From Escherichia phage BP9: 64,000 nucleotides of DNA. Positions 2,086-54,933 of this stretch are shown in pieces (position 1 is the first letter of the stretch; each line of letters begins with the position of its first letter). The stretch lies in sequence record PP488543.1, one strand, 5' to 3'. Made by a program: the position numbers and the translations under genes. The notes beneath the pieces were generated by a model that saw only the letters and a list, made by a program, of their open reading frames with translations, searched no databases and had not been told where the DNA came from.

Positions 2086-4422
2086 ATGGCTACAAACAAA
2101 ATAGTTGCCACAACAGTCAACAAGATTGGCTTTGAGATAGAGAACTCCTCCTACAAAAAAGCTGTAGAGAAAATTCGCAGTATTGGGAGGGAGTTCAGGA
2201 AACTGGGCGAAGATTTTAACTCAGCCAACCCCATGAGTAGATGGCAGGCGGTAGCTGTTAAAACCCAGCAGACAATGCAGCGGGTTGCCAGACAGCAATC
2301 TCAGGCAAATGCTAAGCTGCACAGGGAGAGCGTAGCACAGGCCAAGAAAGAGGCTGCAGTAAGGGCTGCAATAGAACGTAGGGAGAATGCGAGACGTAAA
2401 CAAGCTGTAGGTAATCTTACCGCTAAAAATCCAGAAATGGCTAGGATGCGTAAGTTCTACCAGCAGCAAGCTAAAGAGGCCAAAAAGGCTGCCAAATCTG
2501 CACCAGTGTCTTACGGTGGTTATAAGGCACCTAAGGCAAGAGTTCTTGCTAACGCCAAGTCTTTCAGATATATTCCAGGCAACCCGAACATGGGTGGGGT
2601 GGCTTCAGATCCTAATCTTGTTAAAGCCCAGACCGCTGCCATGAACCGTTATCACAGACAGCTAAGAAGGGACGGTAAAGCTGGTATGGATAATAGGCTT
2701 ATGTCGGATCGTGAGGCAAGAAGAACCCACCTCTACAACTCCGCGATAAGACTTTCTGCCAAGTATGGTGCCGGATTCCGTGGAAGCTTGCCAGGATACT
2801 CAGAGTTAGAGTCCAGGTTTGCTCGCGGGGAGATGAAAAAGTCAACATTTAACGCCCACTTGTCAGCGCTGCAGTCTGGATTTAAAAGCGCCACCAGCCA
2901 AACGCTTACACTAGGCGATGCCATGAGAGACTTACGTAGATCTGTTATTAATGCAACAGCTGCGTATACAGCTTTTTCTGGATTTGCTGCGGTTAACAGA
3001 TCCGGTCACATGATGGAGGGGGCAAGTGCTGCTCTTACTGCTGTTACTGGAGATCCAAACAAAGCCAACAGTGAGGTTGCGTTTGTCCAGCAAGAGGCTA
3101 TGCGTCTTGGTTTTGATCTCAAATCTGGTCTTCAAGGTTACGCCCAGATGTCGGTAAACGCCAAAAACCAGATGACAAATCAGGAAGTGCATGAGCTGTT
3201 TTCTGCATACTCCCAGTATGCTGCTGCTTATGGTGCTGATGAGGTAAAATATCAGCGCGGTATCATGGCAATCCAGCAGATGCTTGGCAAGGGACAAGTA
3301 ATGTCCGAGGAACTGAAGCAACAGCTTGCTGAAGCATTACCTGGTGCATACGAACCTTTTATCAAGGCCACCAAAGAGGCTTTTGGTCTTTCTGAACTCT
3401 CCATGGATCAGTTCATGGACATGATGAAGAAAGGTGAGGTTAAAACAGCCAAGATCATGAAGTATGTGGCTAAGTACATGAACGAGGCATCTGCAGCTGG
3501 TTATGAAAGAATGCAGAAGTCTAACGTGCTGGCAGAAAACAGACTGAAAACCTTCATTGAACTGACTCGTCAGAAACTGTTCACCCGTTGGTCTGACGAA
3601 CTAACAGAGTTCTATTATACACTAATCCGCACTGGTGAGACTCTGCAATTTGTGTGGGATGCCTCTGGTGATTTTGTTAGCGGGTTTGTGAGAGGCCTTA
3701 ACTGGGTAGTTGGTGAACTAAACAACACTATAGTCAAGATCCGCATGTTTTTCCTTGAATGGGGGATTAAATGGGGATTCATAACAGCTAAGACGAAGGA
3801 ATATTCTGAAGAGCTTCATGACACCTTTAGCTATGCTAGATGGGCAGGGTTTGCTGCTGCCATCATGCTGGTAGTCAACGCCCTAACAAAAGGTTTTGTC
3901 ATGGCATCCATGCTTGTAAAAACCTTTAAATTCCTTAACTCTTTAAGAGGTGCAGCTGGAGCAGCTGGTGTCGCTACTGCAGAAGGATCTGGTGGTGGAG
4001 CTCCGGCAGGAAAAGGTGGAGGTGGCCTCAAGACACCTGGTGGCAAAGTTGGTCTGCTTGGTAAGCTGGGTATTATCGGTACAATATTAAGCGCAGGGGA
4101 ATTATTTAATGACCGTTTCAACCCACTAAGTGAAAGAAATCAGCAGCTGGACACTATCAGCGATATGATTCGCAAAGATATCATATCAGGAGGTAACGGG
4201 TTTGTTAATCCTTTGGACACCTTACCGGGCGGGACTCTTCCGTTGCCAGGTGGCCCCGGTTTTGCTTCTCAATTAAGAACTATGGAAATGCTACCTTTAG
4301 AGATCAGTGATGGGAAAATCACGATTTCAATAGATGAGGGTGAGTTTAACAAAATATTTGATGCAAAACTTGAGTGGGAGAACAATAAAGATATCAACTT
4401 CATGTCTACCGACCTTTGGTAA
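2086..4422 (+). CDS. tail tape measure protein (778 aa)
   Basis: Long alpha-helical, Ala/Lys/Gln-rich N-terminal half; conserved tape-measure motif (GIMAIQQMLGKGQVMSEELKQQLAEALPGAYE); hydrophobic segment and Gly-rich region (GAAGAAGVATAEGSGGGAPAGKGGGG); position after the chaperone pair. Confidence 0.85.
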   Translation: MATNKIVATTVNKIGFEIENSSYKKAVEKIRSIGREFRKLGEDFNSANPMSRWQAVAVKTQQTMQRVARQQSQANAKLHRESVAQAKKEAAVRAAIERRENARRKQAVGNLTAKNPEMARMRKFYQQQAKEAKKAAKSAPVSYGGYKAPKARVLANAKSFRYIPGNPNMGGVASDPNLVKAQTAAMNRYHRQLRRDGKAGMDNRLMSDREARRTHLYNSAIRLSAKYGAGFRGSLPGYSELESRFARGEMKKSTFNAHLSALQSGFKSATSQTLTLGDAMRDLRRSVINATAAYTAFSGFAAVNRSGHMMEGASAALTAVTGDPNKANSEVAFVQQEAMRLGFDLKSGLQGYAQMSVNAKNQMTNQEVHELFSAYSQYAAAYGADEVKYQRGIMAIQQMLGKGQVMSEELKQQLAEALPGAYEPFIKATKEAFGLSELSMDQFMDMMKKGEVKTAKIMKYVAKYMNEASAAGYERMQKSNVLAENRLKTFIELTRQKLFTRWSDELTEFYYTLIRTGETLQFVWDASGDFVSGFVRGLNWVVGELNNTIVKIRMFFLEWGIKWGFITAKTKEYSEELHDTFSYARWAGFAAAIMLVVNALTKGFVMASMLVKTFKFLNSLRGAAGAAGVATAEGSGGGAPAGKGGGGLKTPGGKVGLLGKLGIIGTILSAGELFNDRFNPLSERNQQLDTISDMIRKDIISGGNGFVNPLDTLPGGTLPLPGGPGFASQLRTMEMLPLEISDGKITISIDEGEFNKIFDAKLEWENNKDINFMSTDLW

Positions 4423-40601: not shown

Positions 40602-42083
40602 TTACTTAGCGTACTCGATTAATTCCACAGTTTTACCAAAGCTAGGGATATAATTTTTATTATACCCTTCGGTGAGAACCCATAAAGTATCGTACTTTTT
40701 CCACTTGTTGTCAACAGCCTTTTGTTCAAAGTTATGCTCAAAGTATAGGTCGGTCAGGACGATGACATCTTTTGCATTTGGTATGTTGGCATCCAGATAC
40801 TCGAACACGCAAGCAGCTGTTGTGCCCCATGTTGAGTGGACCTCATAGTTGATCATTTCGTCTATGTTGCCGCGAGTATATACTTTAACCTCTCCGACTT
40901 CAGTTGACCAACAGAACATTGTAACCTTAAACTCTTTATACAGATTGCACAATCCGGTGATTTCATTGAACATTTTCTTTAAAGTTCTTTGAGAGATCGA
41001 GCCAGAAACGTCTAAAGCTACCACAATATCTATGGTGTTTTCCGGATTACGACCAGGAACAATAACGTGCTGGTTCTTGTTTATAGCCCCAACTTTTCGC
41101 ATTGTGCTGGTCAAAGACCCAGATCGGCGACCAGGTTTTCTGTAGGTCAGTTCGGCCTTTCGTTTAGACAACATGCGTTGCTTAATGATGTCTATATAGT
41201 TGATTACAGGCTTACCTCTGTTCTTGACAAACTCACGCACCGCCTCGGGGCAACGACCTCCGGAAGCTTGCATTGCTGCTTCCAGCATGTCACCAGAGTC
41301 TTGCATGGCCTGATCTTTATCAGATTGGCTGATTACAGGTTGTGGCTGATCATACCCCATAGCCTTTCCAAGATCATCGCTGGTGCCACCGTTCCCACTC
41401 ATGTGATCATCGGTTTGTCGCTTATCCCCTTGAGAGTTCTCACCTTTACCGCTCTTACTTTTACCGTTATTCTGATCTCTTTGCTTATCAAGAACCGCAT
41501 AGACGTTCTCAGCAATCCATCCATGAAACCTCATGTCGCAGTAGCAGCTGGCTAAGAAACCAAAAGGCTTACCTTTCACGAACGTAGTGCTTTTCCCCTT
41601 CGGGAAGAAAACACAGGGAGGCTTGCTAAAGTCAACCACAAGACCTGTGTTGATAACATGATCACAAGCAATATTAAACAGTTCCGGCTCGAAGCTTTTA
41701 CCACGGACCAGGTGATCACAGATAATATGCCCCACCTCGTGTGACAGAAGAAAAGCCACCTCTTTCACAGATTTGGGAGAATAGAAAACCTCAGCCATCT
41801 CAAACTGTTCGTCAGTTAGAGAAGCCTTAAGAATAGCCTTGCGTTCATCAGCCAATCCCATAATGAACTCAGGGCTGTAATAGATGCGTTTATGGTCGGT
41901 TGCCATGGTGGAGCACCATGTGTGGTTTTCTACGAACTGCAATCCTGACAGCAGTGTGCCATAAAACGGCAGCTTTTCAAGGAGATACATACGTGCAGCC
42001 TGCAACATTCTCAGGGCATCATCTTTCTGTGAGGCAATGATTTCTGAACTTCTGCTATCCATTAAAACTCCAGAAGGGGCCAA
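40602..42083 (-). CDS. VWA-domain protein with N-terminal zincin-like (HExxH) domain (DUF2201-type), 493 aa
   Basis: HEVGH metallopeptidase motif (LLSHEVGHIICDH) in the N-terminal half and a MIDAS motif (IVVALDVSGSIS) in the C-terminal half. Confidence 0.7.
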   Translation of the reverse strand: MAPSGVLMDSRSSEIIASQKDDALRMLQAARMYLLEKLPFYGTLLSGLQFVENHTWCSTMATDHKRIYYSPEFIMGLADERKAILKASLTDEQFEMAEVFYSPKSVKEVAFLLSHEVGHIICDHLVRGKSFEPELFNIACDHVINTGLVVDFSKPPCVFFPKGKSTTFVKGKPFGFLASCYCDMRFHGWIAENVYAVLDKQRDQNNGKSKSGKGENSQGDKRQTDDHMSGNGGTSDDLGKAMGYDQPQPVISQSDKDQAMQDSGDMLEAAMQASGGRCPEAVREFVKNRGKPVINYIDIIKQRMLSKRKAELTYRKPGRRSGSLTSTMRKVGAINKNQHVIVPGRNPENTIDIVVALDVSGSISQRTLKKMFNEITGLCNLYKEFKVTMFCWSTEVGEVKVYTRGNIDEMINYEVHSTWGTTAACVFEYLDANIPNAKDVIVLTDLYFEHNFEQKAVDNKWKKYDTLWVLTEGYNKNYIPSFGKTVELIEYAK

Positions 42084-42095
42084 TGGCCCCTGTCA

Positions 42096-43151
42096 TTATT
42101 TAACGTGTTTGAAAATACCTGCCAACTCGGTCATTGTCATGCGGGTGGTCTTCATAAGATCTGTCATAGCTTTCTCCATAATTGGAGATACTACCATAAA
42201 GTTACCCTTGGTGAAACCTTTATTCCAGTCGGTCACTAATAGTGGTTTAAGTCCGACCCCGAGACGCTCACCAGTTAAAGCACAACATTTTCGAATGTAC
42301 GTGCTCTTAAATTGACTGAATGACAGATCAACTTTCATACCTGCATCGTAGAACGTCTGACAATAGAAAGTGTAAGCTTTGGCAATCTCAACATCGTCAG
42401 GCAGTGCAGGAACCTCTTCTGTGAGCTCTTCTTCGTCCCCTTGAGGCTCTTTTTCCTCTTCGTAAGCCTGTTGCGCCACTTCTTTAATCTCCTCTGCTGC
42501 AGGCTCGTTTACAATGTCAGAAATGTGCTTGTTGGCTCCACGGTTAGCCATGAAGTTTTTAAAATCCTGCATTGGTGACATATCTTCCTCCCATTCTTCG
42601 TCAAAGAGTGCCAGTTTATCCTCTTCCGTCCCATATTGCAAGATGAAATCTTCAAAAGTGTAATCACCTTTCAATTTCTCCATGCGCTCTTCGCTCAGGT
42701 GGAGCATCATCTGCTGGACAATTTTTCGATCAGTTTTGTCTTTAATCAAGATTGCGGTCTTTTTATCTACCAGGCAGTCTTTCAGAGAGTTACACCTCAA
42801 TCCTACCACACAACAGTTATCAATTGCGTAAGGACCTTCATCATCTATCCGCTCCAGAGATGGGTAGAAAGGATTCCCCAGCCCGTTTTCATCTGTGTAC
42901 ATGTCGAAAGGTATAAGGGTATAGTCGCATACCCCCTCTCCTAAAAGTTTTTTACCAAATAGGAGGTATTCTTCCCATGACAGGTTGAACTCTATATCCC
43001 GTTTCCGTGCATTATTCTGTTTGCGTCTATATTTTTTGAGCAGGCGCTCTAACTCTTCTGGTGTATAATATTTTTCAAGATTCATGAGTTGTCTCTTGTG
43101 CTCTGTAGGTGAAGAAATCTTATCAAGTGCCTCAACAGATGTCAACCTCAA
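42096..43151 (-). CDS. hypothetical protein (351 aa) with acidic linker
   Basis: TTG start at 43151 in the track; first gene of the minus-strand block, read from a divergent promoter region; no family recognised. Confidence 0.4.
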   Translation of the reverse strand: MRLTSVEALDKISSPTEHKRQLMNLEKYYTPEELERLLKKYRRKQNNARKRDIEFNLSWEEYLLFGKKLLGEGVCDYTLIPFDMYTDENGLGNPFYPSLERIDDEGPYAIDNCCVVGLRCNSLKDCLVDKKTAILIKDKTDRKIVQQMMLHLSEERMEKLKGDYTFEDFILQYGTEEDKLALFDEEWEEDMSPMQDFKNFMANRGANKHISDIVNEPAAEEIKEVAQQAYEEEKEPQGDEEELTEEVPALPDDVEIAKAYTFYCQTFYDAGMKVDLSFSQFKSTYIRKCCALTGERLGVGLKPLLVTDWNKGFTKGNFMVVSPIMEKAMTDLMKTTRMTMTELAGIFKHVK

Positions 43152-43158
43152 AAACGTG

Positions 43159-43187
43159 TTGACTTTACCCTAAATCCACGATATAGT
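43159..43187 (+). promoter_or_regulatory. sigma70-type promoter (TTGACT-17 bp-TATAGT) for the plus-strand accessory block
   Basis: -35 at 43159-43164, -10 at 43182-43187 in the divergent intergenic region; AGGAG Shine-Dalgarno precedes the ATG at 43228. Confidence 0.5.
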
Positions 43188-43227
43188 GCACCCATTCGAA
43201 AGAAAACGAACACAGGAGTACTTAATC

Positions 43228-44127
43228 ATGGCAAATCTTAACAGCTTTAGCACTCGGTGGAAACAAGATATCACAACCAATCTCTCAGCAGGCGATATCC
43301 TTTCTGCAATTTACGAGGCTTTGGATGATAAAGCTACTTCAAAAGCGGTTTGTACCAACCCACTAATTCCTGTAGTGATGAAGGTTATTGAGCGTAGATT
43401 GGTATCTGGGTCTGATAAGTGGACATATTTAGATAATGAAGGACACACCTATTCCAATGGGTACGTCGATATAAAAGTAGAATACGCGGTATCATACCGC
43501 CGGAGCGGTTCTGTAACTTTCAACTTCTCTGGAGGTTTTCGATCTCTGGCTACCTCACCTTTTGTTTCCTCAGAGGAGAAGTATGAGCTTCCATTTCTTT
43601 GGATGATGGCTAACGCGACAGGAAAAACCCCCGTTAGCATCCGAGTAAAATACAACTACAACGGATCTAGTAAGATCTATGCCGAGAGTGTCTCAGCAAG
43701 TTTTTATTTTGTGATGGGGGATGGAATCCTCAAACATATAAAGATGTGCGATATGCATGATGTTATAAATGAAGTGACTGATAAGAATGTTCTGGTGAAG
43801 GATCTCAACAATTTTTATACACCCGGAGACTATTACGTCAGCCGTCCACTGTGCATCTTTAATGCCGCACACCCTCTAGGTGAGTATTTGATCGCCAATA
43901 GCGATATTGCCAATAACCGCTTCGAGGTAGCAAGAGTACAGAATGAGGTATTGACATCTTGCAAGAGCGGTGATAAGTTTACCGAAGAAGAGATGGGTGT
44001 TTTAGAAATGATGGGATATAAGTGTAGCCTTTGGGTAGATGAGGTGTTTAATGATTGCATCTATGGACAGGATATTTACCCATTAAAGAAGTATACTGAT
44101 TCCAGTTTAATTTACGCGGAGATTTGA
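43228..44127 (+). CDS. hypothetical protein (300 aa)
   Basis: ATG at 43228 with AGGAG Shine-Dalgarno; the track start at 43186 overlaps the promoter -10. Confidence 0.45.
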   Translation: MANLNSFSTRWKQDITTNLSAGDILSAIYEALDDKATSKAVCTNPLIPVVMKVIERRLVSGSDKWTYLDNEGHTYSNGYVDIKVEYAVSYRRSGSVTFNFSGGFRSLATSPFVSSEEKYELPFLWMMANATGKTPVSIRVKYNYNGSSKIYAESVSASFYFVMGDGILKHIKMCDMHDVINEVTDKNVLVKDLNNFYTPGDYYVSRPLCIFNAAHPLGEYLIANSDIANNRFEVARVQNEVLTSCKSGDKFTEEEMGVLEMMGYKCSLWVDEVFNDCIYGQDIYPLKKYTDSSLIYAEI

Positions 44128-44402
44128 CTATGATGAAGTCATGTGGTAGTGTATATTATGTTGGTGAGAATGTTCAGGCAGATAGTGTGTGGAAATCCAT
44201 TAAGTCCACCACCGATGATGCCTTTCTGAGCGGGTTATGCTTTCCCAGCCCAGGGGACACTCTCCCTTACCCTGGAGATTTTGTTGTCAACAAGATGGAC
44301 GGTTATACCGTGTGCCTGATGGTTGAAAAAATCTTTTTAGACACTAGACACAATCACCGTCTTGTGTTAAAATTTCAAGAATGTAAAATGACAATTGCCT
44401 AA
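44124..44402 (+). CDS. hypothetical protein (92 aa)
   Basis: 4-bp start/stop overlap with the upstream gene. Confidence 0.35.
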   Translation: MTMMKSCGSVYYVGENVQADSVWKSIKSTTDDAFLSGLCFPSPGDTLPYPGDFVVNKMDGYTVCLMVEKIFLDTRHNHRLVLKFQECKMTIA

Positions 44403-44415
44403 GGAGACCTTGCCG

Positions 44416-44772
44416 ATGTCTAAAGTTACTTATCGTGCAGCTATTTACTGCAATGAACACCCAATCTATAATGATGGTCACTGCCTTTTTAAAGAAAATC
44501 AATTGGGCTGTATTGTCCTCCCTGATGAAGGTGAAGGTTATCTGATTGCGTTGACAGGGTTTGAACCTGAAGCTCTGGAAACCAATCTTGACTACCTGGT
44601 AGAAGAGGGTGCTGCAGACCTGGTTGCCAATGGCCTATCCGTAAGCCTTGATGAAGTGGAGCGCTTCATGGGCAATTACCGTGTAGTGCGTGAGTTTACT
44701 ATCGAGGTGGAAACTCCAGAGTGGGGTAGCACTGAAACTAATGCCGAAGAAAAAGAAGAGGAGGTAGAATAA
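44416..44772 (+). CDS. hypothetical acidic protein (118 aa)
   Basis: ATG at 44416 preceded by TAAGGAGA; the track start at 44395 is less likely. Confidence 0.4.
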   Translation: MSKVTYRAAIYCNEHPIYNDGHCLFKENQLGCIVLPDEGEGYLIALTGFEPEALETNLDYLVEEGAADLVANGLSVSLDEVERFMGNYRVVREFTIEVETPEWGSTETNAEEKEEEVE

Positions 44773-45029
44773 TGAAAGTGCAGATCTTGACTAATGCCGA
44801 GAAGATGTTTATTGAAGATACACCTTTTGAAGCTGGTGAGCTACAGTTCGTTTATTTTGTTGACTTAGATAAGGTGTTCCCTGCACTGAATCTGGGTCTG
44901 GATGAAGTTCCTCATAAGGTTTTGTGCCAAGTTGTTCGTGCCTTAGCGGCAGAGGGGGAGTTCCACACCCTTCAAGATATCCAGACCTACGGGTATCTTG
45001 AACTACAACGAGAAGAAGAGGTGGACTGA
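44772..45029 (+). CDS. hypothetical protein (85 aa)
   Basis: Stop/start overlap with the upstream gene. Confidence 0.35.
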   Translation: MKVQILTNAEKMFIEDTPFEAGELQFVYFVDLDKVFPALNLGLDEVPHKVLCQVVRALAAEGEFHTLQDIQTYGYLELQREEEVD

Positions 45030-45031
45030 TA

Positions 45032-45412
45032 ATGGCTCAGTGGAAGACAACAGTTGACCTTCATGATCAGTGGTTAGGACGCATCACTGAAGACGGGAAG
45101 TTAGTTGAGTGGGACAATAAGCATGTTAGCGAGTTGGCAAGTATTGTGGCTGGCAAGTTACGATCCAAGTTCCCTGAACAACTGGATCCTGATAGTTCAA
45201 AGTTCGATCCTGAGTTGGAGGATGTTGTATACTACTTCGACACCGTGGATGACTACGATGCGTGGTTTGCAGCACGGGAGCTTTACCCACAAGGATCTGC
45301 TATGCGCCAGATGGAAGAAGATTATCCTCCGTGCGAGCAATTCAATAGTGCAATGACTTGCCTCTACGATTGGGCAGATAAGAACCTTGTCTGGATTCGG
45401 ACTGCATTTTAG
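45032..45412 (+). CDS. hypothetical protein (126 aa)
   Basis: Tightly packed ORF. Confidence 0.4.
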   Translation: MAQWKTTVDLHDQWLGRITEDGKLVEWDNKHVSELASIVAGKLRSKFPEQLDPDSSKFDPELEDVVYYFDTVDDYDAWFAARELYPQGSAMRQMEEDYPPCEQFNSAMTCLYDWADKNLVWIRTAF

Positions 45413-45456
45413 TGGGCAGGAATGGCGGCAAGGATGCTGCTTAAGGAGTAGTAGAG

Positions 45457-45726
45457 ATGTTATACCAGCAATATGAACTTCGTGCAGAAAAAGAGTTAAA
45501 TTTTGACAAAGATATTCACAGATATTATTATGGGAAAGTTAGAGGGCAAGCAAGAAAGTGTACTCCAACACTCTTTTATGCCAGCAGACGACTAGCGCCA
45601 GAAGAGGCAACAGCAGAAAGGGTTGCGTACAACTGGAGAGTCACGTATGATATTGACAGATCCGATGTGATATCTGTTTTGGAAAACTTTGAAAACACTT
45701 ACACACAAGTAGAGGACTTTTACTAA
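45457..45726 (+). CDS. hypothetical protein (89 aa)
   Basis: Tightly packed ORF whose stop overlaps the ATPase start. Confidence 0.35.
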   Translation: MLYQQYELRAEKELNFDKDIHRYYYGKVRGQARKCTPTLFYASRRLAPEEATAERVAYNWRVTYDIDRSDVISVLENFENTYTQVEDFY

Positions 45727-46910
45727 TGTCAAGAAACGTATTTGAAAGTGGTCAAATCACTGTCCGTGAGTTGCCAGCTATCATTCAGTTTGCCCAGCGT
45801 CATAACCGATCTGTCCTGATTTTAGGACCAATGGGTGTGGGAAAGAGCCAGGTGATGAAGCAGATCGCAGACAATATGTTCGGTGAGCGAGATGACAACT
45901 TGGTTGACGTGCGGTTGTCAGATAAAGATCCTGCCGACTTATCTGGGCTACCTATCCCTGTAGAAGCGGATGGAACTACACGTACAGTGTTTGCAATTCC
46001 AGAATTTTGGCCTGCGGATCCTGGCTGGAGCGGAATTATCTTTCTGGATGAGCTCACTCATGCAGATAACTACCTGCAAAAGGTTGCAATGCAAATTATG
46101 CTCGACCACAAGTGCGGTACCTATGCATTCCCTAAAGGTTCTGTTTTTGTGGCTGCTGGTAACCGTTCTACAGATGGTGCGGTTCTTTCGGCGCTCGAAG
46201 CCCCTCTGGCTAACCGTTTTATCATTGTAGAAGTTACAAGCAATGCAGAGGTGTTTATTGAGGACTACGCATTCCTTAATGGGGTGCACTCCTCTGTAAT
46301 TGGATATTTGAAAAGAGTTCCATCAGCTATCGATAATTATGAGGCTATGGCTGAGATTAATTGTCCATCTTTTGCCACACCACGATCTTGGGTTGCTGCA
46401 TCTGACATCTTGCACGATTTTGACAGCGGTATTATTTCTGACGCTATGGCCCGTGTTCTTCTGCAAGGTGCTGTTGGTCACACTGCAGCGGTAGAGATCT
46501 GGACTTACCACATCAAGAAACGTAACTTACCGGAAATCGGTCGGATTATGGCAGGAGGTTGCAAAGAATATGTAGGTCCTAAACAGCCAGACATCTTGTG
46601 GATTCTTGGATCTGAAGGTTGTATCGCTATTCGTAATATGATGGAAAATGCAAGTATCTCCGACGAAGATCTTGTTAGCTGTGTGGCAAACTTCCTCGAT
46701 TTCCTTTGGGAAAATTTCAAGGACGAGAACCGAGATTTTGTATTCTCAGTCTTTATGGCGATGATGAAACCTAATGCCTTAGGAAATGCCTTGCTTATCG
46801 GTAAAGGGCGTGACAAGATTGTTGCTCAGCTGATCAAAGCATACCCAAACCTAATGAAGATTGTAAAAGAGTTTGGTGAAGAGTTTAGCGCCATTTTGGC
46901 TAAAGCTTGA
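45726..46910 (+). CDS. MoxR-type AAA+ ATPase (AAA_5 family)
   Basis: Walker A LILGPMGVGKSQ, Walker B IIFLDELTHA, sensor region VFVAAGNRSTDGA..LANRF typical of MoxR/RavA-like ATPases. Confidence 0.8.
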   Translation: MSRNVFESGQITVRELPAIIQFAQRHNRSVLILGPMGVGKSQVMKQIADNMFGERDDNLVDVRLSDKDPADLSGLPIPVEADGTTRTVFAIPEFWPADPGWSGIIFLDELTHADNYLQKVAMQIMLDHKCGTYAFPKGSVFVAAGNRSTDGAVLSALEAPLANRFIIVEVTSNAEVFIEDYAFLNGVHSSVIGYLKRVPSAIDNYEAMAEINCPSFATPRSWVAASDILHDFDSGIISDAMARVLLQGAVGHTAAVEIWTYHIKKRNLPEIGRIMAGGCKEYVGPKQPDILWILGSEGCIAIRNMMENASISDEDLVSCVANFLDFLWENFKDENRDFVFSVFMAMMKPNALGNALLIGKGRDKIVAQLIKAYPNLMKIVKEFGEEFSAILAKA

Positions 46911-46919
46911 GGAGGTTGT

Positions 46920-47300
46920 ATGGCTAAAGTAGGTAAGCGGGGAAACTACTTGGTAGTATTGACCGAGGAGCCGGAGAAGGAGTACGAATGCAGCTCCACT
47001 TGCGTGATCGATATCCGAGAAAAAGATGTAGATGAAATCTGGTTTGAAATATTAGACGCTTGCGACAGCAGTGATTATTTCTTCATCTATGTCAACGATA
47101 AAGCCGGGTTCTTCCATGACGACGGAGAGTTGCCGTATGAAATCTATGAGCTTGTAGAGGCTTGCCATCGTGGAGATGCGGAGTTGTTTGGCTTACGGCT
47201 GAAAAGCGGTAAATTCTTCTATCAAGATGAGTGCATGAATCTTCATAACTTTGTAGAGGGAACTTGCAACGATGGAGAGATTTTGGTACACTACGATTAA
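46920..47300 (+). CDS. hypothetical acidic protein (126 aa)
   Basis: ORF followed by a strong terminator. Confidence 0.4.
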   Translation: MAKVGKRGNYLVVLTEEPEKEYECSSTCVIDIREKDVDEIWFEILDACDSSDYFFIYVNDKAGFFHDDGELPYEIYELVEACHRGDAELFGLRLKSGKFFYQDECMNLHNFVEGTCNDGEILVHYD

Positions 47301-47311
47301 TTTCTAAGACA

Positions 47312-47340
47312 CCCCCGCTTCGGCGGGGATTTTCTATTTG
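47312..47340 (+). terminator. rho-independent terminator (ccccgc-UUCG-gcgggg + T-rich)
   Basis: Same hairpin core as the terminators at 15348 and 21161. Confidence 0.75.
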
Positions 47341-47348
47341 GAGTTATT

Positions 47349-47849
47349 GTGAAAATTAAGATCTTTGCTATTATTTTGAGCGCACTTTTATCGCTGCCTG
47401 TTGTTGCAGCACCAAAACAAAAAGTATATCATACTTGCAAGCCATCGGATACTAAGGAAAACATTCTGGCATGCAATATCTACAGGGAAGCTAGAGGAGA
47501 TGGCACGATGGGTATGCTGGCATCTGGGTTTGCCACCCTAAACAGGAAATCTCATCCCAAATACCCGGACACTATAAGAAAGATTGTCTACCAACCTAAT
47601 CAGTTTTCGTGGACAACCTACGGCAAAACTTTTAAGGTGACAGAAAAAGATTCATGGGATCACGCTAAAAGTCTTGCAAAGATGCTTCTAAAGGTCTATA
47701 ATAACAACCATGTTGCATACATGGCTATGGATATAACAGGTGGAGCAACACACTACCATACGACCAAAGTACGACCGAAATGGGCAAAAAAGATGCAGAG
47801 GACAGCTCAATTCGGGAGTCATATCTACTACAAGGAGCGCAATAAATGA
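47349..47849 (+). CDS. secreted cell-wall hydrolase, SleB/CwlJ (Hydrolase_2) family, with N-terminal signal peptide
   Basis: GTG start after GGAG. Signal peptide MKIKIFAIILSALLSLPVVAAP. Conserved block NIYREARGDGTMGMLASGFATLNRKSHPKYPDTIRKIVYQPNQFSW matches the SleB-family consensus (..EARGE..GQ.AVA.V..NR..S..FP.T...VVFQP.QFS). Confidence 0.7.
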   Translation: MKIKIFAIILSALLSLPVVAAPKQKVYHTCKPSDTKENILACNIYREARGDGTMGMLASGFATLNRKSHPKYPDTIRKIVYQPNQFSWTTYGKTFKVTEKDSWDHAKSLAKMLLKVYNNNHVAYMAMDITGGATHYHTTKVRPKWAKKMQRTAQFGSHIYYKERNK

Positions 47850-49828
47850 TTGTAAACAGTAATGAAACTAAAGCAGTGCTAACTGGAAATATGGAGGTCA
47901 CCAGGGGCTCAATTTCTCTGAACAAAGAGACTTTTGGGCTAATCATTAAAGGGATTTACGAAGATAAGGTGCTGGCAAGCTGCCGTGAACCAATCTTCAA
48001 TGCTGTGGACTCTCATGTTGAGTCTGGACGGGGTGATGTACCGATCATCATTCACTCTCCTACAGACCTTGAACCATACTTCTTTGTGCAGGACGTTGGA
48101 TTAGGCATGTCAGAAGAGATGGTCCGCAACACTTTCATGAACCTCGGAGAGTCAACCAAGCGCAACAGCAACGCTCTGGTGGGTAATAAAGGTGTTGGTT
48201 CAAAGGCCCCGTTCAGCATGGTGGACACTTTCGATGTGATCAGTGTACACAATGGTGTTGAAAGCACATATCTATTGTTCTTGGATCAGGGTATCCCAAA
48301 CGTTACCAAAATCCGCGAGCGGAAGACCGAAGAGCACAATGGGGTAAAAGTTCAGTTCCATGTTAAGAAAGAGCATGTTCTGAAATATCGCACTGCTATT
48401 GCATCATGCCTACGCTATGCAAAGTTTCCGTTTACCGTTACCGATCCTATGACCAATAAGATGCTGGAAGGTGACAAGGTTGAGGCGCAGTATCGCTACG
48501 AGAAAGATGGTTGGAAAATGACCATCCTAAAGGGCTATACCAGCTCTGACGAGAGTCGCGTGGTAATGGGTCACCAACCTTACCGTTCTAAGTTCCTGGA
48601 GACATTAACAGACTACCCTGCAATCTGTGTAGAGATCCCTATCGGGGATTGCAATATTAACCCTGGGCGCGAATGGACCATAGAGGGGCACGACGATGGT
48701 GGATTCCAAGAGCGGTTGGAGGCTTTTGTCAAAGAGGGTATCCGTCTTCGTGGGGCAGAAGTTGTTGCGGAATTGGAGACAGCAAAAACATCCTCAGAAG
48801 CACGTGAGATGATGAAGAACAGTGGAGTGTTCGGGCACATCTTCGGTAAGAATTTTATGTGGGACCGATGGGAAGAGACAGGACTAGGAAGTTTGGGAGA
48901 TTGTGAGATCTTCGCTGGCGGCTTAAATAAAGGCCGCATAGGTTACGCCTGCTACGGAAAGTCGGAGTTCTTACGAGGGGTCTACTTAGTGTTTAACGAC
49001 GGAGACGGCAAATATAACCGAAATAAGTGTAACTACTTAAGCGAGATCACCGGACGCAACGTTTTCTATTGCCGTAACACGGATTTGGTGGAAGAGTTTA
49101 AAGAAGCGGCACACCACCCGTTCTTTGCAGATACGGTCAAATTGTTATCAGAGCTTCCTCGCCGACCTGTGAAGAAAGGTGAAACCAAAACTCGTTACGA
49201 GCCAGGCTATTGGGTTAAAAAACTTGAGAAGGATGGTTACTTCCGTCGTGAGCGTATTACTAAGGCAGAGTTCAGGAAGATTAAGCACTGCATTCCTTAT
49301 GAGGGTGATATCCAACGTGGAAGTTGTTGGCTGGGACAGCTGAGTAACATCTACCAGCAAAATTATGACCGTGTGCGTGCGGCACTCCAGATTCCTGAAG
49401 GGGAAGATCTGTACCTAGTATCAGAATCTCGTCTGCTTTGGACTGATCCTGATTGCCAGTATGTTACAGAGAAGAATGTGGAACATTTGTTGAAAGAGGA
49501 CGCCTGGAAATTCTTACTGACTCGCGCAGCAAATGAAACTTCATATGACAGCCTGTATAGACAATTAGGGAAAATTATTCCCATGCAAGATTTTGGAAAT
49601 TATCGGCCACATTTCCACAAGTGGGAAGGTAACACCGCGTGGAAGCACAGTGAGCTAAATCATCGTGCCAAAATCTTAATCGCCAACCGAGTTAAATGCG
49701 GGAAGGCCTATATTGCAAGATTGGAAAAGAAATACCCACTTTTGAAGCATGTAGGCTTGAAATATTGGGACACTCCTGCTATGATTGAATACCGTGAACT
49801 GATCGATACAAAGAATAACATCAAATAA
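47846..49828 (+). CDS. GHKL (Bergerat-fold) ATPase-domain protein, possibly rIIA-like (660 aa)
   Basis: N-box FNAVDSHVESG, G1 box VQDVGLGMS and G2 box GNKGVGSKAPF in the N-terminal 150 aa; start overlaps the hydrolase stop (ATGA). The rIIA relationship is an inference from domain architecture. Confidence 0.55.
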   Translation: MIVNSNETKAVLTGNMEVTRGSISLNKETFGLIIKGIYEDKVLASCREPIFNAVDSHVESGRGDVPIIIHSPTDLEPYFFVQDVGLGMSEEMVRNTFMNLGESTKRNSNALVGNKGVGSKAPFSMVDTFDVISVHNGVESTYLLFLDQGIPNVTKIRERKTEEHNGVKVQFHVKKEHVLKYRTAIASCLRYAKFPFTVTDPMTNKMLEGDKVEAQYRYEKDGWKMTILKGYTSSDESRVVMGHQPYRSKFLETLTDYPAICVEIPIGDCNINPGREWTIEGHDDGGFQERLEAFVKEGIRLRGAEVVAELETAKTSSEAREMMKNSGVFGHIFGKNFMWDRWEETGLGSLGDCEIFAGGLNKGRIGYACYGKSEFLRGVYLVFNDGDGKYNRNKCNYLSEITGRNVFYCRNTDLVEEFKEAAHHPFFADTVKLLSELPRRPVKKGETKTRYEPGYWVKKLEKDGYFRRERITKAEFRKIKHCIPYEGDIQRGSCWLGQLSNIYQQNYDRVRAALQIPEGEDLYLVSESRLLWTDPDCQYVTEKNVEHLLKEDAWKFLLTRAANETSYDSLYRQLGKIIPMQDFGNYRPHFHKWEGNTAWKHSELNHRAKILIANRVKCGKAYIARLEKKYPLLKHVGLKYWDTPAMIEYRELIDTKNNIK

Positions 49829-49838
49829 GGAGACCAAG

Positions 49839-50738
49839 ATGATTTTCATCTACGAACATTTCAAAACCCGTAAAGAAGCAAGAGACCGCCGTGCAGAACT
49901 TGAGAAGAAGGGTTTCATATGTGCCATTGAGAAAGGCGACACAACCTGGACACTGGCAGTTGGTGCCCCAGAGTTGTTCGATCCTGACCGTGACAGCGTC
50001 TGCTACACCCGTGAAGATTTTGAAACCCGCGAAGAGGCCCGTTTATTTCGATACGGTCTGGAAGATAACGGTAAGTACGCCATGATCTTAGATTTAGGCG
50101 AAGGGTCCGTTAAACGTTGGGGCGTGGTATACCCACTGTGTGTTGTTCATGGTGTGGGGTTCACTGGGGTAGCAATCAAGTCAGAAGAACCTTTAGTAGA
50201 AGTCAAAGATCCGGTGCTGGAGGTGGTGAGCAGTGTATCTCAGCAACAGACTCGAAGTATTGAGCCTTTGGTAGTTATTTGTGGGGAACTCCTCCAGATC
50301 ACCTGCAACGAAGGCATTTTTGAAATTCGCCGCAGTGAAAGTGAGGAAGTTTACCAGAAAGTCTTCGACCATATCTCTGTCCAGAAATATGACGAGGCAA
50401 TTGGTGAAATCCTTGTCTGGTTGGAACGCAAGAATGAGTTCACTACACTTGCAGACAACCTGATCATGAAAGATGGTAAGCTCTACTACTACGGTGTAGA
50501 GATGCGATCCACCATTGCAAAGAAAATTGAGAAAGATTATGCAGACGGAACACTAGATGACCGCTATGTGAAATTCCTAGTTCGCCTGCTACGCAATCCT
50601 TCTGCAAAATCTGTAAACATGCTCTACGATTTTATGCAGGCCAACGATATCCAGCTTGCAGAAGATGGTCGAATCATTTGCTACAAAGGAGTTCATTTTC
50701 CATCGTTTTTTTGCCGAGCAGGAGCTGGAGTTCTTTAA
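49839..50738 (+). CDS. hypothetical protein with two N-terminal repeats; 3' end replaced by IS2 sequence (possible rIIB-like partner, unverified)
   Basis: Repeats [19 protein letters not shown] / [18 protein letters not shown]; the last ~17 codons are encoded by IS2-derived DNA (IS2 homology begins at about 50688), so the native C-terminus is lost. Confidence 0.4.
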
Positions 50739-50976
50739 TCTGCTTCATGGCAGCAGCAAGTTCAGAGGCAGGAACGACCTGTTCTCCTGCGGCCACAGCA
50801 GTAAGACTTCCCTCCTGGTATTGCTTGCGCCAGAGAAATAACTGGCTGGCTGCCACACCGTGTTGCCGGGCAACAAGGGAGACCGTCATTCCCGGTTCAA
50901 AGCTCTGCTGAACAATAGCGATCTTTTCCTGTGTAGTACGCCGTCTGCGTTTCTCCGGTCCTAAGACATCAATCAT
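50674..50976 (-). pseudogene. insC: truncated IS2 insC (orfA) reading out of the IS fragment into phage DNA
   Basis: InsC N-terminal ~96 aa are intact, then the frame runs across the junction at about 50688 and terminates at 50674. Confidence 0.8.
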
Positions 50977-51067
50977 CTGCTCTCCAATGACTAGTCTAAA
51001 AACTAGTATTAAGACTATCACTTATTTAAGTGATATTGGTTGTCTGGAGATTCAGGGGGCCAGTCTA
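50688..51067 (-). mobile_element. IS2 fragment (left inverted repeat plus 5' part of insC/orfA), truncated internally
   Basis: Reverse complement matches the IS2 left end TAGACTGGCCCCCTGAATCTCCAGACAACCAATATCACTTAAATAAGTGATAG... and the start of InsC ([84 protein letters not shown]..); only ~380 bp of the 1.3-kb element is present. Confidence 0.9.
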
Positions 51068-51386
51068 TATTCCACGCTGTACTGCAGTGATGAATGGAGT
51101 ATCTTCTGATCTTATCGGTTCAAATTCGTTTCAGGTAAACCCATCTATTTTTCACAAACATACTAGTTCAATCGATGTCAATAATGGAATTCATTCTATG
51201 GCATACGATAATCACATGGCCTCTGGTAACATTGCAGAAACTGAAATATCTGAACTTACTCAGGATATTGTATCTAAAATAAAACTTGGTTATGCAAGTG
51301 AAACGACTTCTGGAGTTGATGTTGTTATTGCCAGAGTGCAGGTTATTTTTGATGGATTAACATCATCTGGAGTTTGCAGGAAATAA
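51068..51386 (+). CDS. 3' remnant of a gene interrupted by the IS2 insertion (product unknown)
   Basis: The frame is open across the IS2 end at 51067; the encoded C-terminal ~100 aa are Gly/Ser/Asn-rich; no family recognised. Confidence 0.3.
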
Positions 51387-51549: not shown

Positions 51550-51966
51550 ATGGTGTGTGCTATGTCGGTTAACATAACAACTGAGTCTTTAAATCAATGG
51601 CTTAGTGTGAGCTCTCTTGCTGCGGTTATCGTAGGCGTTCCGCCAGAGGTGGCGCTCGGTGCTCTTGCTGGCGCGGTAATTTTTGTTACCTCTGCGGTAG
51701 AGTATCCAATTCGTCGTCGCGTACTCTTGTCGATGCTCAGCTTTCTCTGCGGACTTCTTTTCTACAAACCAGCAGCATCAATTCTTATCGGCATAGCCAG
51801 CCTGATCCCTACCATCACGCAGGACTCTTTTGAAAAAGGTATTGTTTTCTCTGCTGGCGCATTCGTGTCAGCAATTGTCGCTGTGCGTATTGGTATATGG
51901 CTCTACCACCGTTCAGACAATCCACGCGATTTAATTCCGGGGAGAAAAGACGATGGTAACGCATGA
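51550..51966 (+). CDS. putative holin (multi-pass membrane protein, 138 aa)
   Basis: 3-4 predicted transmembrane helices; first gene of a cassette containing endolysin and spanins; alternative in-frame start at codon 5. Confidence 0.5.
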   Translation: MVCAMSVNITTESLNQWLSVSSLAAVIVGVPPEVALGALAGAVIFVTSAVEYPIRRRVLLSMLSFLCGLLFYKPAASILIGIASLIPTITQDSFEKGIVFSAGAFVSAIVAVRIGIWLYHRSDNPRDLIPGRKDDGNA

Positions 51967-52261
51967 GTTTTTTTTGCTTATCACCAATGCAGTTATTTGT
52001 ACTGGCATAGCAATTCGCGTTGTCACATTCCGGCGTAACGGATCTCAACACCGAAGATGGGGTGGGTGGATTGCTTATTTCCTGATTGTTGCTGCGGCCA
52101 GTATTCCTGTTCGTGTCGTTTATGCAATCTGGTTACGCACGCCAATGGCTGTGGATTTATCTGAGGTCATTATCAACGCTGTCATGCTTGCTGCGGTTAT
52201 TAAAACGCGCGGTAACGTCGTTCAGATTTTCAAAATAACGAGGTCTAAACATGGAGATTAA
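51953..52261 (+). CDS. putative second lysis membrane protein (holin/antiholin-like, 102 aa)
   Basis: Three hydrophobic helices; overlaps the holin stop and the endolysin start. Confidence 0.45.
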
Positions 52262-52880
52262 ACAATTCCAGCGAGCTGCTGGTATTAGAGAGGCGCTGGC
52301 CGCTCGCTGGTTCTCGCATATAACTTCTGCGATGAAAGAGTTTGGTATCAGCAAAGCAGAGGATCAGGCAATGTTTATTGCTCAGGTCGGGCATGAATCT
52401 GTGGGCTTCACCAGATTGCAGGAGAATTTCAACTACAGTGTCAGCGGTCTGGCTAACTTCGTTCGGGCTGGGCGTCTCACTCAGGGGCAGGCTAATGCAC
52501 TGGGTCGCCGTGCTGGTGAACCACCATTGCCACTCGAGCGCCAGCGAGCGATCGCCAATCTGGTGTACAGCAAACGCATGGGGAACAATTCCCCTGGTGA
52601 CGGCTGGAATTACCGAGGCCGTGGACTTATCCAGATTACCGGTTTGAATAACTATCGTGACTGCGGAAACGGCCTGAAAGTGGACCTGCTGGAGAATCCT
52701 GAACTGTTAGCGCAGGACGAATATGCGGCTCGTAGCGCGGCGTGGTTCTTCTCCAGCAAAGGTTGCATGAAGTATACCGGCGATATTGCACGTGTAACTT
52801 TGATTATCAATGGTGGCAGGAACGGCATCGACGACCGGAGAGCGCGGTACATCACTGCCAGTAAGGTGCTGGCGGTATGA
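52251..52880 (+). CDS. endolysin, glycoside hydrolase family 19 (chitinase-like lysozyme)
   Basis: GH19 signatures ([12 protein letters not shown] ... [16 protein letters not shown]) in a lysis-cassette context. Confidence 0.8.
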
Positions 52881-53359
52881 TCTGGGCATTCGTAAAAGCA
52901 TACTGGAAACAGTTGCTTATCGTGGCGGTGCTTGCTGTTCTGGTCATATCAGGGGTTGTTGCCTGGAATGTACACGGTAGTCGTCAGTACGACGCCGGGT
53001 ATGCACAGGCGAAAGAAGACCGCAAAACCGAAGATGAGAGAGTTCGTCAGCACTACGAACAGGAGAAATCGATCAATGAACGTGAAGCGCAGCAGAGGAT
53101 CGACCAGGCGCGCAATGATGCTCTTGATGCTGCCGCTCGCGCTGGCCGGTTGCAGCAACAGCTCGTTGCCATCCGTGAGCAGCTCAGGCAGTATAACGCC
53201 ATTGTCGGCGCTGGGACGTCAGCCGCAGACACCGGAGTTTTGCTTGCCGACGTGCTCAGTAAATCTCTCGAGAGAAACAGACAACTGGCAGAGTATGCTG
53301 ACCGGGCAGCCGAAGCCGGAAGAGTCTGTGAAAAACAGTACGACACCCTGACCAGATAG
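52877..53359 (+). CDS. Rz: i-spanin (Rz-like)
   Basis: N-terminal transmembrane segment ([18 protein letters not shown]) followed by coiled-coil periplasmic domain; contains an embedded lipoprotein gene in another frame. Confidence 0.65.
53076..53351 (+). CDS. Rz1: o-spanin (Rz1-like outer-membrane lipoprotein) embedded within Rz
   Basis: ATG at 53076 preceded by AGGAGAAATCGATCA; lipobox LALAGC ([30 protein letters not shown]), Pro-rich mature part; entirely inside the Rz gene in a different frame. Confidence 0.7.
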   Translation: MNVKRSRGSTRRAMMLLMLPLALAGCSNSSLPSVSSSGSITPLSALGRQPQTPEFCLPTCSVNLSRETDNWQSMLTGQPKPEESVKNSTTP

Positions 53360-53532
53360 CATGGCATTTTTCATGGTACTGATTTCCGGTGACGGTATAT
53401 AAAACGGTACGGTAAAAATTGAGATTTGGAAAAATGTTATCACTCAATTGGTTATGGTATCCGTAAATAATTGAGTGGGAATGATTAACAGCTAACTCAT
53501 AGCAAATCATTCCTATTCAGATGCTAACTCAA

Positions 53533-53566
53533 CCCTCTGTTTTTGCAGAGGGTTTTTGTTTTTATG
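53533..53566 (+). terminator. rho-independent terminator downstream of the lysis cassette
   Basis: ccctctg-tttttg-cagaggg hairpin followed by tttttgtttttat. Confidence 0.6.
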
Positions 53567-53676
53567 TATTCATTTCTATTCACTCTACACCATATTTTTC
53601 GGCGGTACAGGTGACGGTATTACCTTAAAGGTATACTCTCATACCGTCATGAAAATGGTTTCTATATGGGTGAATT

Positions 53677-54933
53677 GTGCTTACCGATACAAAATTAAAA
53701 AACCTCAAGCCGCAGGACAAACTGTACAAGGTCTCCGACCGTGACGGGCTGTATGTAGCTGTGCTTACGTCAGGCACGGTCTCGTTTCGCTATGACTACC
53801 GTATCAACGGTCGCCGCGAAACACTGGTAATCGGGCAGTATGGGCGTGACGGTATCAGCCTGGCAGAAGCGCGAGAAGAACTGATTGCTGCAAAGAAGCT
53901 GCTTAAAGCAGGCCAGTCACCGGCTGCGGCTAAACGTGACGGTATCAAAAAGATTCGTGGTGCCGAGACGTTTGCGGTACATACCGACAGTTATATGAAA
54001 CACGTCATCCTGGCTGACAGTACCCGCGCAATGAAGCAGGCGGTGATCGACCGTGACATACTTCCGGTTCTTGGCAACAAAATGATGGCTGAAATTACCA
54101 CATCGATGGTTCGTGATTTGTGTGACCGGATTGTCGAACGCGGTGGTCGGGCAACAGCAGTACAGGCCAGGGAGATCATCAGCAGCGTATACCGTCACGC
54201 CAATGACCGTGGTCATGGTTTGTTTAATCCTGCGGCTGACATTAAACCTTCGTCTATCGCCATATTTAAACCACGAGAGCGAACACTGACACCAGAAGAA
54301 ATTGGCCTGTTCTTCCGCACGCTGGATGCCATTGGTGCTATGGGCACTATGAAAATGGCTTTAAAGCTGGTGCTTATCACTATGGTTCGTAAAGGCGAAT
54401 TCACCAATGCAACGTGGGATGAAATAGATTTTAAAAAATGGACATGGACAATTCCTTCAGACCGCATGAAGGGAAGCCGGGCGCACGTTATTTACCTGCC
54501 TAAACAGGCACAGGATATATTGGTTGGGTTGCAGATGTGCGCTGGTGGAAGTGAATATCTGGTTCCTGGTCGTTACAATTTCCGGAAGCCATTATCTAAT
54601 GCCGCGCTGAACTCTCTGATCGACAGAACGGTGAAAATAATAAATGAAGATGGTGAGCATATTCAGGGCTTCACCGTACACGATATGCGCCGTACAGCCA
54701 GTACGTTGTTGCATGAGGCTGGTTATCCTTCAGACTGGATTGAAAAGGCGCTGGCACATGAGCAGAAAGGTGTGCGCGCCGTATATAACAAAGCGGAATA
54801 CGCCAGACAGCGCGCCTGGATGTTGCAGCAGTGGGCCGATATGATTGATTCCTGGATTAACGGGGAGCATACGGATCTGATTCCGTTCTCCCCGTCGAAG
54901 TTTGAGAGGTGGATGGAAGACAGTAATAAATAA
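53677..54933 (+). CDS. int: tyrosine integrase, P4-like family
   Basis: N-terminus MLTDTKLKNLKPQDKLYKVSDRDGLYVAVLTSGTVSFRYDYRINGRRETLVIGQYG is the classic P4-type integrase arm-binding domain; the C-terminal catalytic region contains HDMRRT and a tyrosine near the end (RAVYNKAEY). Confidence 0.9.
   Translation: MLTDTKLKNLKPQDKLYKVSDRDGLYVAVLTSGTVSFRYDYRINGRRETLVIGQYGRDGISLAEAREELIAAKKLLKAGQSPAAAKRDGIKKIRGAETFAVHTDSYMKHVILADSTRAMKQAVIDRDILPVLGNKMMAEITTSMVRDLCDRIVERGGRATAVQAREIISSVYRHANDRGHGLFNPAADIKPSSIAIFKPRERTLTPEEIGLFFRTLDAIGAMGTMKMALKLVLITMVRKGEFTNATWDEIDFKKWTWTIPSDRMKGSRAHVIYLPKQAQDILVGLQMCAGGSEYLVPGRYNFRKPLSNAALNSLIDRTVKIINEDGEHIQGFTVHDMRRTASTLLHEAGYPSDWIEKALAHEQKGVRAVYNKAEYARQRAWMLQQWADMIDSWINGEHTDLIPFSPSKFERWMEDSNK

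Follow-up and report, generated by a model that had tools for sequence, protein, structure and literature searches.

A SleB-like cell-wall hydrolase with a predicted Sec signal peptide in the hydrolase-rIIA-rIIB block of a Vequintavirus sequence joined to phiV10-like DNA

Introduction

Secreted and signal-anchor-release (SAR) endolysins, such as Lys44 of Oenococcus phage fOg44, Lyz of P1, and R21 of phage 21, reach the cell wall through the Sec pathway without a canonical holin, and each is the only endolysin of its phage. In this study, we analyzed a stretch of 64,000 nucleotides (nt) from Escherichia phage BP9 (sequence record PP488543.1; hereafter, this whole stretch is called the window), in which positions 47349 to 50738 hold a gene for a SleB-like cell-wall hydrolase of 166 amino acids (aa), a homologue of T4 rIIA, and the first part of an rIIB gene. 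A reading of the letters alone (hereafter, the sequence-only reading) had regarded the first two genes as translationally coupled, and had proposed that they may serve a second, non-canonical lysis or cell-wall remodelling function distinct from a lysis cassette at 51.5-53.4 kb. Here we report that the region is an ordinary Vequintavirus block of SleB-like hydrolase, rIIA, and rIIB, in which the hydrolase is likely to be a Sec-exported accessory enzyme.

The catalytic domain of the hydrolase is homologous to that of Bacillus SleB and CwlJ (PF07486; structures 4f55 and 4fet), and the catalytic Glu residues align. SleB acts as a lytic transglycosylase, an activity that requires a catalytic Glu (PMC12331253). 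Hydrolase_2, the Pfam name of this family, is among the dominant catalytic domains in the lysins of phages with Gram-negative hosts (PMC8223927). The closest described relatives are the hydrolases of Vequintavirinae, namely CB7_83 of Pectobacterium phage CB7, CR3_087 of Cronobacter phage CR3, and bas57_0064 of phage MaxTheCat. All of them belong to the same family, possess a signal peptide, and share the position ahead of the helicase block. They show no material difference from the window protein, although the neighbour in Certrevirus is a 62-aa membrane protein instead of rIIA and rIIB. Buttimer et al. (2020, PMC7344957) reported a predicted signal peptide for the Vequintavirinae hydrolase, its toxicity on expression in E. 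coli (data not shown in that paper), and the occurrence of homologues in all Vequintavirinae genera. The hydrolase-rIIA-rIIB arrangement is also already known, being annotated in phage genomes and discussed in that paper. The locus carries little weight as a discovery: the block is a standard feature of rV5-like genomes, and published work already covers the signal peptide of the hydrolase, its toxicity, and its distribution.

Results and discussion

Identity of the element and of the gene block

By nucleotide comparison, positions 1-50689 of the window were found to be the sequence of a Vequintavirus, an rV5-like lytic myovirus of E. coli, with 95-99% nt identity to more than 100 Vequintavirus genomes. 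The identity was collinear over positions 1-25000 and 47000-50699, and the gene order was the same; positions 1-25000 showed 96% identity to the rV5-like tail module. When positions 47000-50699 were used for megablast, 95-99% identity was observed in at least 84 phage genomes, nearly all of them Escherichia rV5-like myoviruses. The best relative was VB-EcoM-WM (99.2%), in which the three genes are annotated as cell wall hydrolase, RIIA, and RIIB. The genes of the block are as follows.

47349..47849, + strand: SleB/CwlJ-type (Hydrolase_2) single-domain cell-wall hydrolase, 166 aa, GTG start (PF07486, phrog_938, SleB structures)
47846..49828, + strand: rIIA homologue, 660 aa, intact, with an N-terminal GHKL ATPase domain (phrog_612, PF13589, BLASTP with T4 rIIA)
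49839..50689, + strand: rIIB homologue, N-terminal 283 of 401 codons (phrog_609); the open reading frame (ORF) runs 16 codons into IS2 and stops at 50738

In MaxTheCat, a curated member of the genus Vequintavirus, the order is a MoxR ATPase, a hypothetical gene, a 166-aa putative cell wall hydrolase, rIIA, rIIB, and a helicase. In the genomes of more than 100 rV5-like phages, hydrolase, rIIA, rIIB, and helicase make up a fixed, annotated block. The exact 166-aa hydrolase was also found on 15 public assembled contigs, where it was called as 166 aa. Among the contig contexts listed, wherever one passed rIIA, the hydrolase was followed by the 660-aa HATPase_c_3 protein and then by a 401-aa rIIB (PF26926), and the longer contigs ran on into a PIF1-type helicase. 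Six independently assembled contigs showed the same block order as MaxTheCat.

Family and catalytic residue of the hydrolase

The sequence-only reading had named the first gene a SleB-like hydrolase and had proposed a Hydrolase_2 profile search as a check. This search gave a match of 69.4 bits to PF07486 (cut-off, 27; E=4.3e-19), covering residues 51-161 of the protein and positions 2-100 of the 100 profile positions. The protein also matched phrog_938, labelled 'endolysin', at E=5.5e-27, and sequence alignment to the Bacillus SleB catalytic domains 4f55_A and 4fet_B gave E=2e-6, with an identity of only about 25-30%. The putative catalytic residue is located as follows.

47487..47489, + strand: codon of Glu47 in the motif Y-R-E-A-R-G-D, aligned with the Glu of SleB 'YGESRGE'

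Glu47 was invariant across all the homologues examined, and is aligned with the SleB residue that we take to be E157/E151. Glu47 is presumed to be the catalytic glutamate. By homology to SleB, the phage hydrolase would most likely be a lytic transglycosylase using Glu47.

No match to the N-terminal three-helix peptidoglycan-binding domain of SleB was obtained, and the Hydrolase_2 domain occupies residues 38-161 of the 166 residues. The mature protein of approximately 146 aa is therefore filled by Hydrolase_2 and leaves no room for a binding domain; it is SleB-like only in its catalytic domain and, in being single-domain, resembles CwlJ. Unlike SleB, moreover, it is encoded by a phage with a Gram-negative host and is predicted to be exported to the periplasm.

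The window hydrolase was 97-99% identical to other Vequintavirus copies. Comparison with relatives gave 11 synonymous and 3 nonsynonymous codon differences in the hydrolase. For rIIA the corresponding numbers were 71 and 8. The excess of synonymous differences in both genes points to purifying selection. In a tblastn search the hydrolase matched 1329 phage records. This muralytic enzyme, putatively accessory and exported by Sec, is thus of a kind that several families of large virulent phages have conserved.

Two cysteines, Cys30 (47436-47438) and Cys42 (47472-47474), lie 12 residues apart before Glu47 and are conserved in Vequintavirinae and in a Stephanstirmvirinae homologue. They could form a periplasmic disulfide.

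Predicted signal peptide and export

The presence of a signal peptide was judged by heuristic three-part criteria, i.e. the charge of the n-region, the h-region, and small residues at -3 and -1. The following feature was obtained.

47349..47408, + strand: signal peptide, residues 1-20 (MKIKIFAIILSALLSLPVVA), with the predicted signal-peptidase I cut between Ala20 and Ala21 (heuristic layout analysis)

The N-terminus MKIK-IFAIILSALLSLPVVA/AP, in which the slash marks the predicted cut, showed the three-part layout of a Sec signal, with an n-region charge of +2, an uncharged core of 18 residues, and the site VVA/A after residue 20. The core had a Kyte-Doolittle maximum of 2.79 and a G/A/S/T fraction of 0.33, was rich in Leu, Ile, and Phe, and carried a Pro at -4 from the predicted cut. 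The layout was kept in 7 divergent homologues whose N-terminal sequences differ; the lineages read were Seunavirus SPLA5a, Avunavirus Av-05, Mydovirus KB57, Certrevirus POP17, Stephanstirmvirinae ALITA, and T5-like TrudiGerster. Their N-termini contained 1-2 positive charges and an uncharged core of 13-20 residues, followed by a site such as VLA/K, AQA/E, SHA/T, or SFA/K. Consequently, the cleavable Sec-type signal peptide that the sequence-only reading had seen is well borne out at the level of prediction.

Two other readings of this N-terminus were considered and rejected. SAR domains are weakly hydrophobic, rich in Gly and Ala, and uncleaved, whereas the core of the hydrolase is strongly hydrophobic (33% G/A/S/T) and is followed by the VVA/A cleavage site. 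A lipoprotein was also rejected because the sequence has no lipobox Cys.

A Sec signal would bring the hydrolase to the wall without a holin. Together with the conserved Glu47, it makes holin-independent export, as the sequence-only reading had supposed, the sensible reading. After Sec export and cleavage behind Ala20, a single-domain Hydrolase_2 enzyme of 146 aa is expected to be present in the periplasm, where it would cut peptidoglycan without needing a holin.

Start codon and expression level

Directly upstream of the hydrolase gene, two features were found.

47313..47338, + strand: terminator-like hairpin CCCCGC-TTCG-GCGGGG with a T-rich tail, immediately before the ribosome-binding site of the hydrolase gene (pattern scan)
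47340..47343, + strand: Shine-Dalgarno sequence GGAG, 5 nt before the hydrolase GTG start (the same GGAG and a non-ATG start are found in homologues)

A Shine-Dalgarno sequence was present in each of the 7 lineages examined, and the start codon was GTG or TTG in five of the seven. A GC-rich hairpin with a T-run was also observed at the same position, with another sequence, in Seunavirus SPLA5a and Avunavirus Av-05 (L005 ~4385-4417; L006 ~4380-4417). The hairpin is thus kept in position, within 25 nt upstream and with differing sequence, in three Vequintavirinae genera. Because of the non-ATG start and the upstream hairpin with its T-run, the hydrolase is expected to be translated at a low level from a weak GTG start, and the conservation of these features looks like selection for low expression. 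Since the over-expressed hydrolase is toxic, the GTG start and the hairpin probably keep its level low. In the literature on Vequintavirus transcript timing, nothing usable was found.

Public records often start the SleB-like gene at an internal ATG, which makes it too short. Examples are versions of 113 aa (L001 6511-6852), 127 aa (L005 4564-4947), and 111 aa (P0003). The signal peptide is missing from these short versions, and from those of 113 and 111 aa the catalytic Glu is missing as well. The true start is a GTG or TTG codon that follows GGAG. Such mis-annotated starts matter when these proteins are mined as enzybiotics.

Relation of the hydrolase to the main lysis machinery

The rV5-like genome of approximately 137 kb contains its own endolysin, putative holin, and spanins, which are located away from the hydrolase block. 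In MaxTheCat, the i- and o-spanins lie beside the terminase, and these genes, a putative holin, and a 156-aa endolysin are all far from the block. This endolysin (L004 24555-25025) was identified as a lambda R-type transglycosylase by its match to PDB 1am7 (E=3e-56) and phrog_90, and showed no evident N-terminal export signal; the main Vequintavirus endolysin gave no Pfam match at E<=0.01 in the library used. The Vequintavirus spanins matched the Rz-like PHROGs phrog_4297 and phrog_1267. No holin or spanin adjoined the hydrolase-rIIA-rIIB block, in agreement with the sequence-only reading. As a separate lambda R-type endolysin, a putative holin, and spanins exist, the SleB-like protein is considered to be a second, accessory muralytic enzyme. 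It differs in this respect from the secreted and SAR endolysins, which have no such partner in their phages. From the sequence, its role would be that of an accessory wall-weakening or wall-remodelling enzyme.

Several points weigh against this interpretation. Bacillus SleB depends on muramic-delta-lactam, a component that E. coli peptidoglycan does not contain. The AlphaFold2 model of the hydrolase was poor (mean predicted local distance difference test score, 63; predicted template modelling score, 0.54), and was built from a 5-sequence alignment; a word-indexed search for homologues, in which the hydrolase sequence was the only query, found 5 proteins only. As for the expression signals, the consensus scans for promoters and terminators gave no more sites than in shuffled sequence, and the hairpin at 47313, to which a terminator role was assigned by its pattern, may not act as a terminator. 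Finally, phrog_938 and many genome records label the hydrolase 'endolysin'.

This last point raises the possibility that the SleB-like protein is the main endolysin, exported by Sec and held back until the membrane is depolarised, and that the lambda R-like protein is secondary. In Certrevirus, the hydrolase gene is followed by an overlapping gene for a 62-aa protein with two transmembrane segments that was proposed to be a holin (PMC7344957), and we confirmed this arrangement in POP17. According to PMC7344957, moreover, the homologue in CR3 has been implicated in lysis. Against these observations, Vequintaviruses keep a cytoplasmic transglycosylase of the lambda R type with spanins and a putative holin, and the hydrolase gene lies in the replication/early region, away from the late genes. 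T5-like and Stephanstirmvirinae phages with the hydrolase carry another lysin too: T5 has its own endolysin (PMC7344957), and Phapecoctavirus is an example of a hydrolase phage with another lysin (PMC10793346). We therefore regard a main-endolysin role as unlikely.

It was also considered that the hydrolase could be a virion-associated lysin that pierces the wall during DNA injection, because the entry of phages often involves a second peptidoglycan hydrolase (PMC7344957). However, a cleavable Sec signal would direct the protein to the periplasm, away from virion assembly in the cytoplasm, and the gene lies outside the structural module. Furthermore, Vequintaviruses already possess annotated baseplate-associated lysozyme-like proteins (gp25-like in PMC7344957). 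Such a role in entry is thus extremely unlikely, and an accessory enzyme acting on the wall from the periplasm remains the preferred interpretation.

rIIA and rIIB

The 660-aa protein, which the sequence-only reading had called a GHKL ATPase and possibly rIIA-like, proved to be an rIIA homologue. It matched phrog_612 'RIIA' over its full length (E=1.4e-124), and Pfam HATPase_c_3 (PF13589) gave 34.9 bits (cut-off, 25). BLASTP with T4 rIIA aligned residues 1-198 with 28% identity (E=3e-21). The Bergerat-fold/GHKL motifs E48-x3-N52-x2-D55, D83-x-G-x-G87, and G113-x2-G-x-G118 were conserved in both the window protein and T4 rIIA. The two proteins thus share the N-terminal GHKL domain and its motifs, whereas T4 rIIA has 725 aa and the C-terminal two-thirds could not be aligned by BLASTP. 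The rIIA DNA was identical to that of phage VB-EcoM-WM across all 1983 nt.

The window rIIB is a truncated member of the T4-type rIIB. Its retained part matched phrog_609 (E=4.5e-27, residues 132-286). The full-length relatives have 401 aa, and the intact relatives aligned with T4 rIIB over residues 172-371 with 37% identity (E=2e-39). T4 rIIB, of 312 aa, accordingly shares the C-terminal half with the intact relatives, whereas the window copy ends at about residue 283. Since the T4-alignable region spans residues 172-371, much of the conserved C-terminal region has been lost. By analogy with T4, rIIA with its GHKL N-terminal domain and rIIB would form the usual 'membrane integrity protector' pair.

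When the rIIA sequence at window positions 47846-48400 was compared with phrog_609, the result implied fused rIIA-rIIB proteins in some phages.

Overlap of the hydrolase and rIIA genes

The hydrolase and rIIA genes are connected by the following features.

47833..47838, + strand: rIIA Shine-Dalgarno sequence AAGGAG, within the 3' end of the hydrolase gene (sequence)
47846..47849, + strand: ATGA overlap of the rIIA ATG start with the hydrolase TGA stop (sequence)

The overlap of the hydrolase stop with the start of the GHKL ATPase gene is therefore present as the sequence-only reading had stated, but 'translationally coupled' reads too much into it. Neighbouring genes with 1- or 4-nt overlaps are common in these genomes (many pairs in MaxTheCat), and rIIA is preceded by a strong Shine-Dalgarno sequence of its own. 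Sister genera also lack the overlap: the two genes are separated by 20 nt in Avunavirus and by 190 nt in Seunavirus. The ATGA arrangement is routine packing of genes, and the coupling is nothing special.

We also considered that the hydrolase and rIIA/rIIB may form a functional unit, in which rII buffers the exported hydrolase and the overlap fixes the stoichiometry. The adjacency of hydrolase and rII is conserved in Vequinta-, Seuna-, and Avunavirus, a small membrane protein takes the slot after the hydrolase in Certrevirus, and T4 rII mutants lyse rapidly on some hosts according to an annotation note. On the other hand, beyond the loss of the overlap and the separate Shine-Dalgarno sequence described above, T5-like, Stephanstirmvirinae, Pakpunavirus, and Plateaulakevirus phages carry the hydrolase but lack rII, and T4, conversely, has rII but lacks this hydrolase, with none upstream of rIIA. 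As the association is confined to one subfamily, shared descent within Vequintavirinae suffices to explain the adjacency, and a dedicated functional unit is improbable. A related idea is an envelope-integrity module, in which the hydrolase would pre-weaken the sacculus, and the rII pair, or the Certrevirus protein with two transmembrane segments, would avert premature lysis. We regard this as quite unlikely; if it were true, rII would gain a concrete biochemical partner.

Composite nature of the window

The downstream part of the window contains the following features.

50686..51066, - strand: IS2 fragment of 381 bp, comprising the left inverted-repeat (IRL) end and most of orfA (IRL end at 51066; internal break at 50686-50689)
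51067..51386, + strand: last 320 nt of a phiV10-like SGNH/GDSL hydrolase gene (869 aa when intact), abutting the IS2 IRL
51550..53359, + strand: lysis cassette of a phiV10-like temperate phage, with two holin-like genes, a GH19 endolysin, and a DUF2514 spanin

The IS2 fragment was identical at 377 of 378 positions to a 1331-bp IS3-family element on an E. coli plasmid. In the base-by-base alignment, identity to rV5-like phages ended at 50689 (...CTACAAAGG) and identity to IS2 began at 50686 (AAGGAGTTCATTTTCC...), and the crossover was therefore a 4-nt microhomology, AAGG, within a 14-nt imperfect similarity. The breakpoint on the rIIB side lies approximately 378-381 bp inside IS2; therefore, it is not a transposition end, and the sole IS end present, the IRL at 51066, abuts phiV10-like DNA. 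An IS2 insertion would place a terminal inverted repeat at the target junction and leave a complete element of 1331 bp, and neither was found. Hence, the sequence-only reading was right that the gene after rIIA is cut, with rIIB truncated at 50689, but the gene is not interrupted by an insertion. Rather, the truncation of rIIB in the window stems from the joining of the rV5-like sequence to a phiV10-like phage within an IS2 fragment.

From 51575 onward, the window showed 96% identity to phage phiV10, with lysis genes, integrase, and early genes following one another without interruption. The genes at 51550..53359 were identified from their annotated counterparts in an E. coli prophage, and the intact SGNH/GDSL hydrolase gene precedes the lysis genes in phiV10-like prophages. 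These results indicate that the hydrolase block and the lysis cassette at 51.5-53.4 kb come from two unrelated phages.

These findings bear directly on a reading in which the hydrolase and the GHKL ATPase are a second, non-canonical lysis system in one prophage-like element together with the cassette. Export of the hydrolase would be separate from a holin, and the cassette lies only 3.7 kb downstream in the window. However, positions 1-50689 derive from a virulent Vequintavirus and positions from 51067 onward from a phiV10-like phage, and these phages are unrelated. The rIIB/IS2 junction was absent from the searched phage, E. coli, viral contig, and GTDB collections, and the contigs with an identical hydrolase that reach past rIIA carry a full-length rIIB. 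In this form the reading is refuted, and a second lysis system of one element is very unlikely. What survives of the sequence-only reading is a putative wall function separate from the main endolysin of its own phage; the cassette from which it had been distinguished is that of the phiV10-like phage. The sequence-level observations of the sequence-only reading are thus confirmed, and its interpretation is supported in part.

As to the origin of the join, both junctions were absent from 5,426 complete E. coli genomes and 50,697 phage records, and as exact 39-40-mers they had no match in viral contigs. In the GTDB genomes, where only the rIIB/IS2 junction was searched, no exact match was found, and a look-up of the rIIB-IS2 fusion ORF gave no record. 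The rV5-like::IS2::phiV10-like join is most likely chimeric and no part of the biology of the block. Alternatively, it could be a real recombinant of a virulent and a temperate phage rather than an assembly chimera, which is less likely. Because the window is a composite of two phages, any inference linking its halves is unsafe. This composite nature is the sole unusual thing in the region.

At positions 51550-54933, the lysis genes run directly into the integrase, which is the non-integrated (attP) order; in the E. coli prophage, host DNA follows the spanin gene. The attP order suggests that this DNA came from phage particles or an excised genome.

Other observations

GenBank records of the MG0656xx series named 'Campylobacter phage' (16-18 records, 128-143 kb) shared 95-96% identity with rV5-like phages of E. 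coli across the window. These records are probably mislabelled or contaminant sequences.

Upstream of the block, positions 40602-46910 contain a DUF2201/VWA-like metallopeptidase gene and a MoxR-type AAA ATPase gene (45726-46910), with a small partner ORF (45457-45726). This gene set looks like a MoxR-VWA style pair in these phages.

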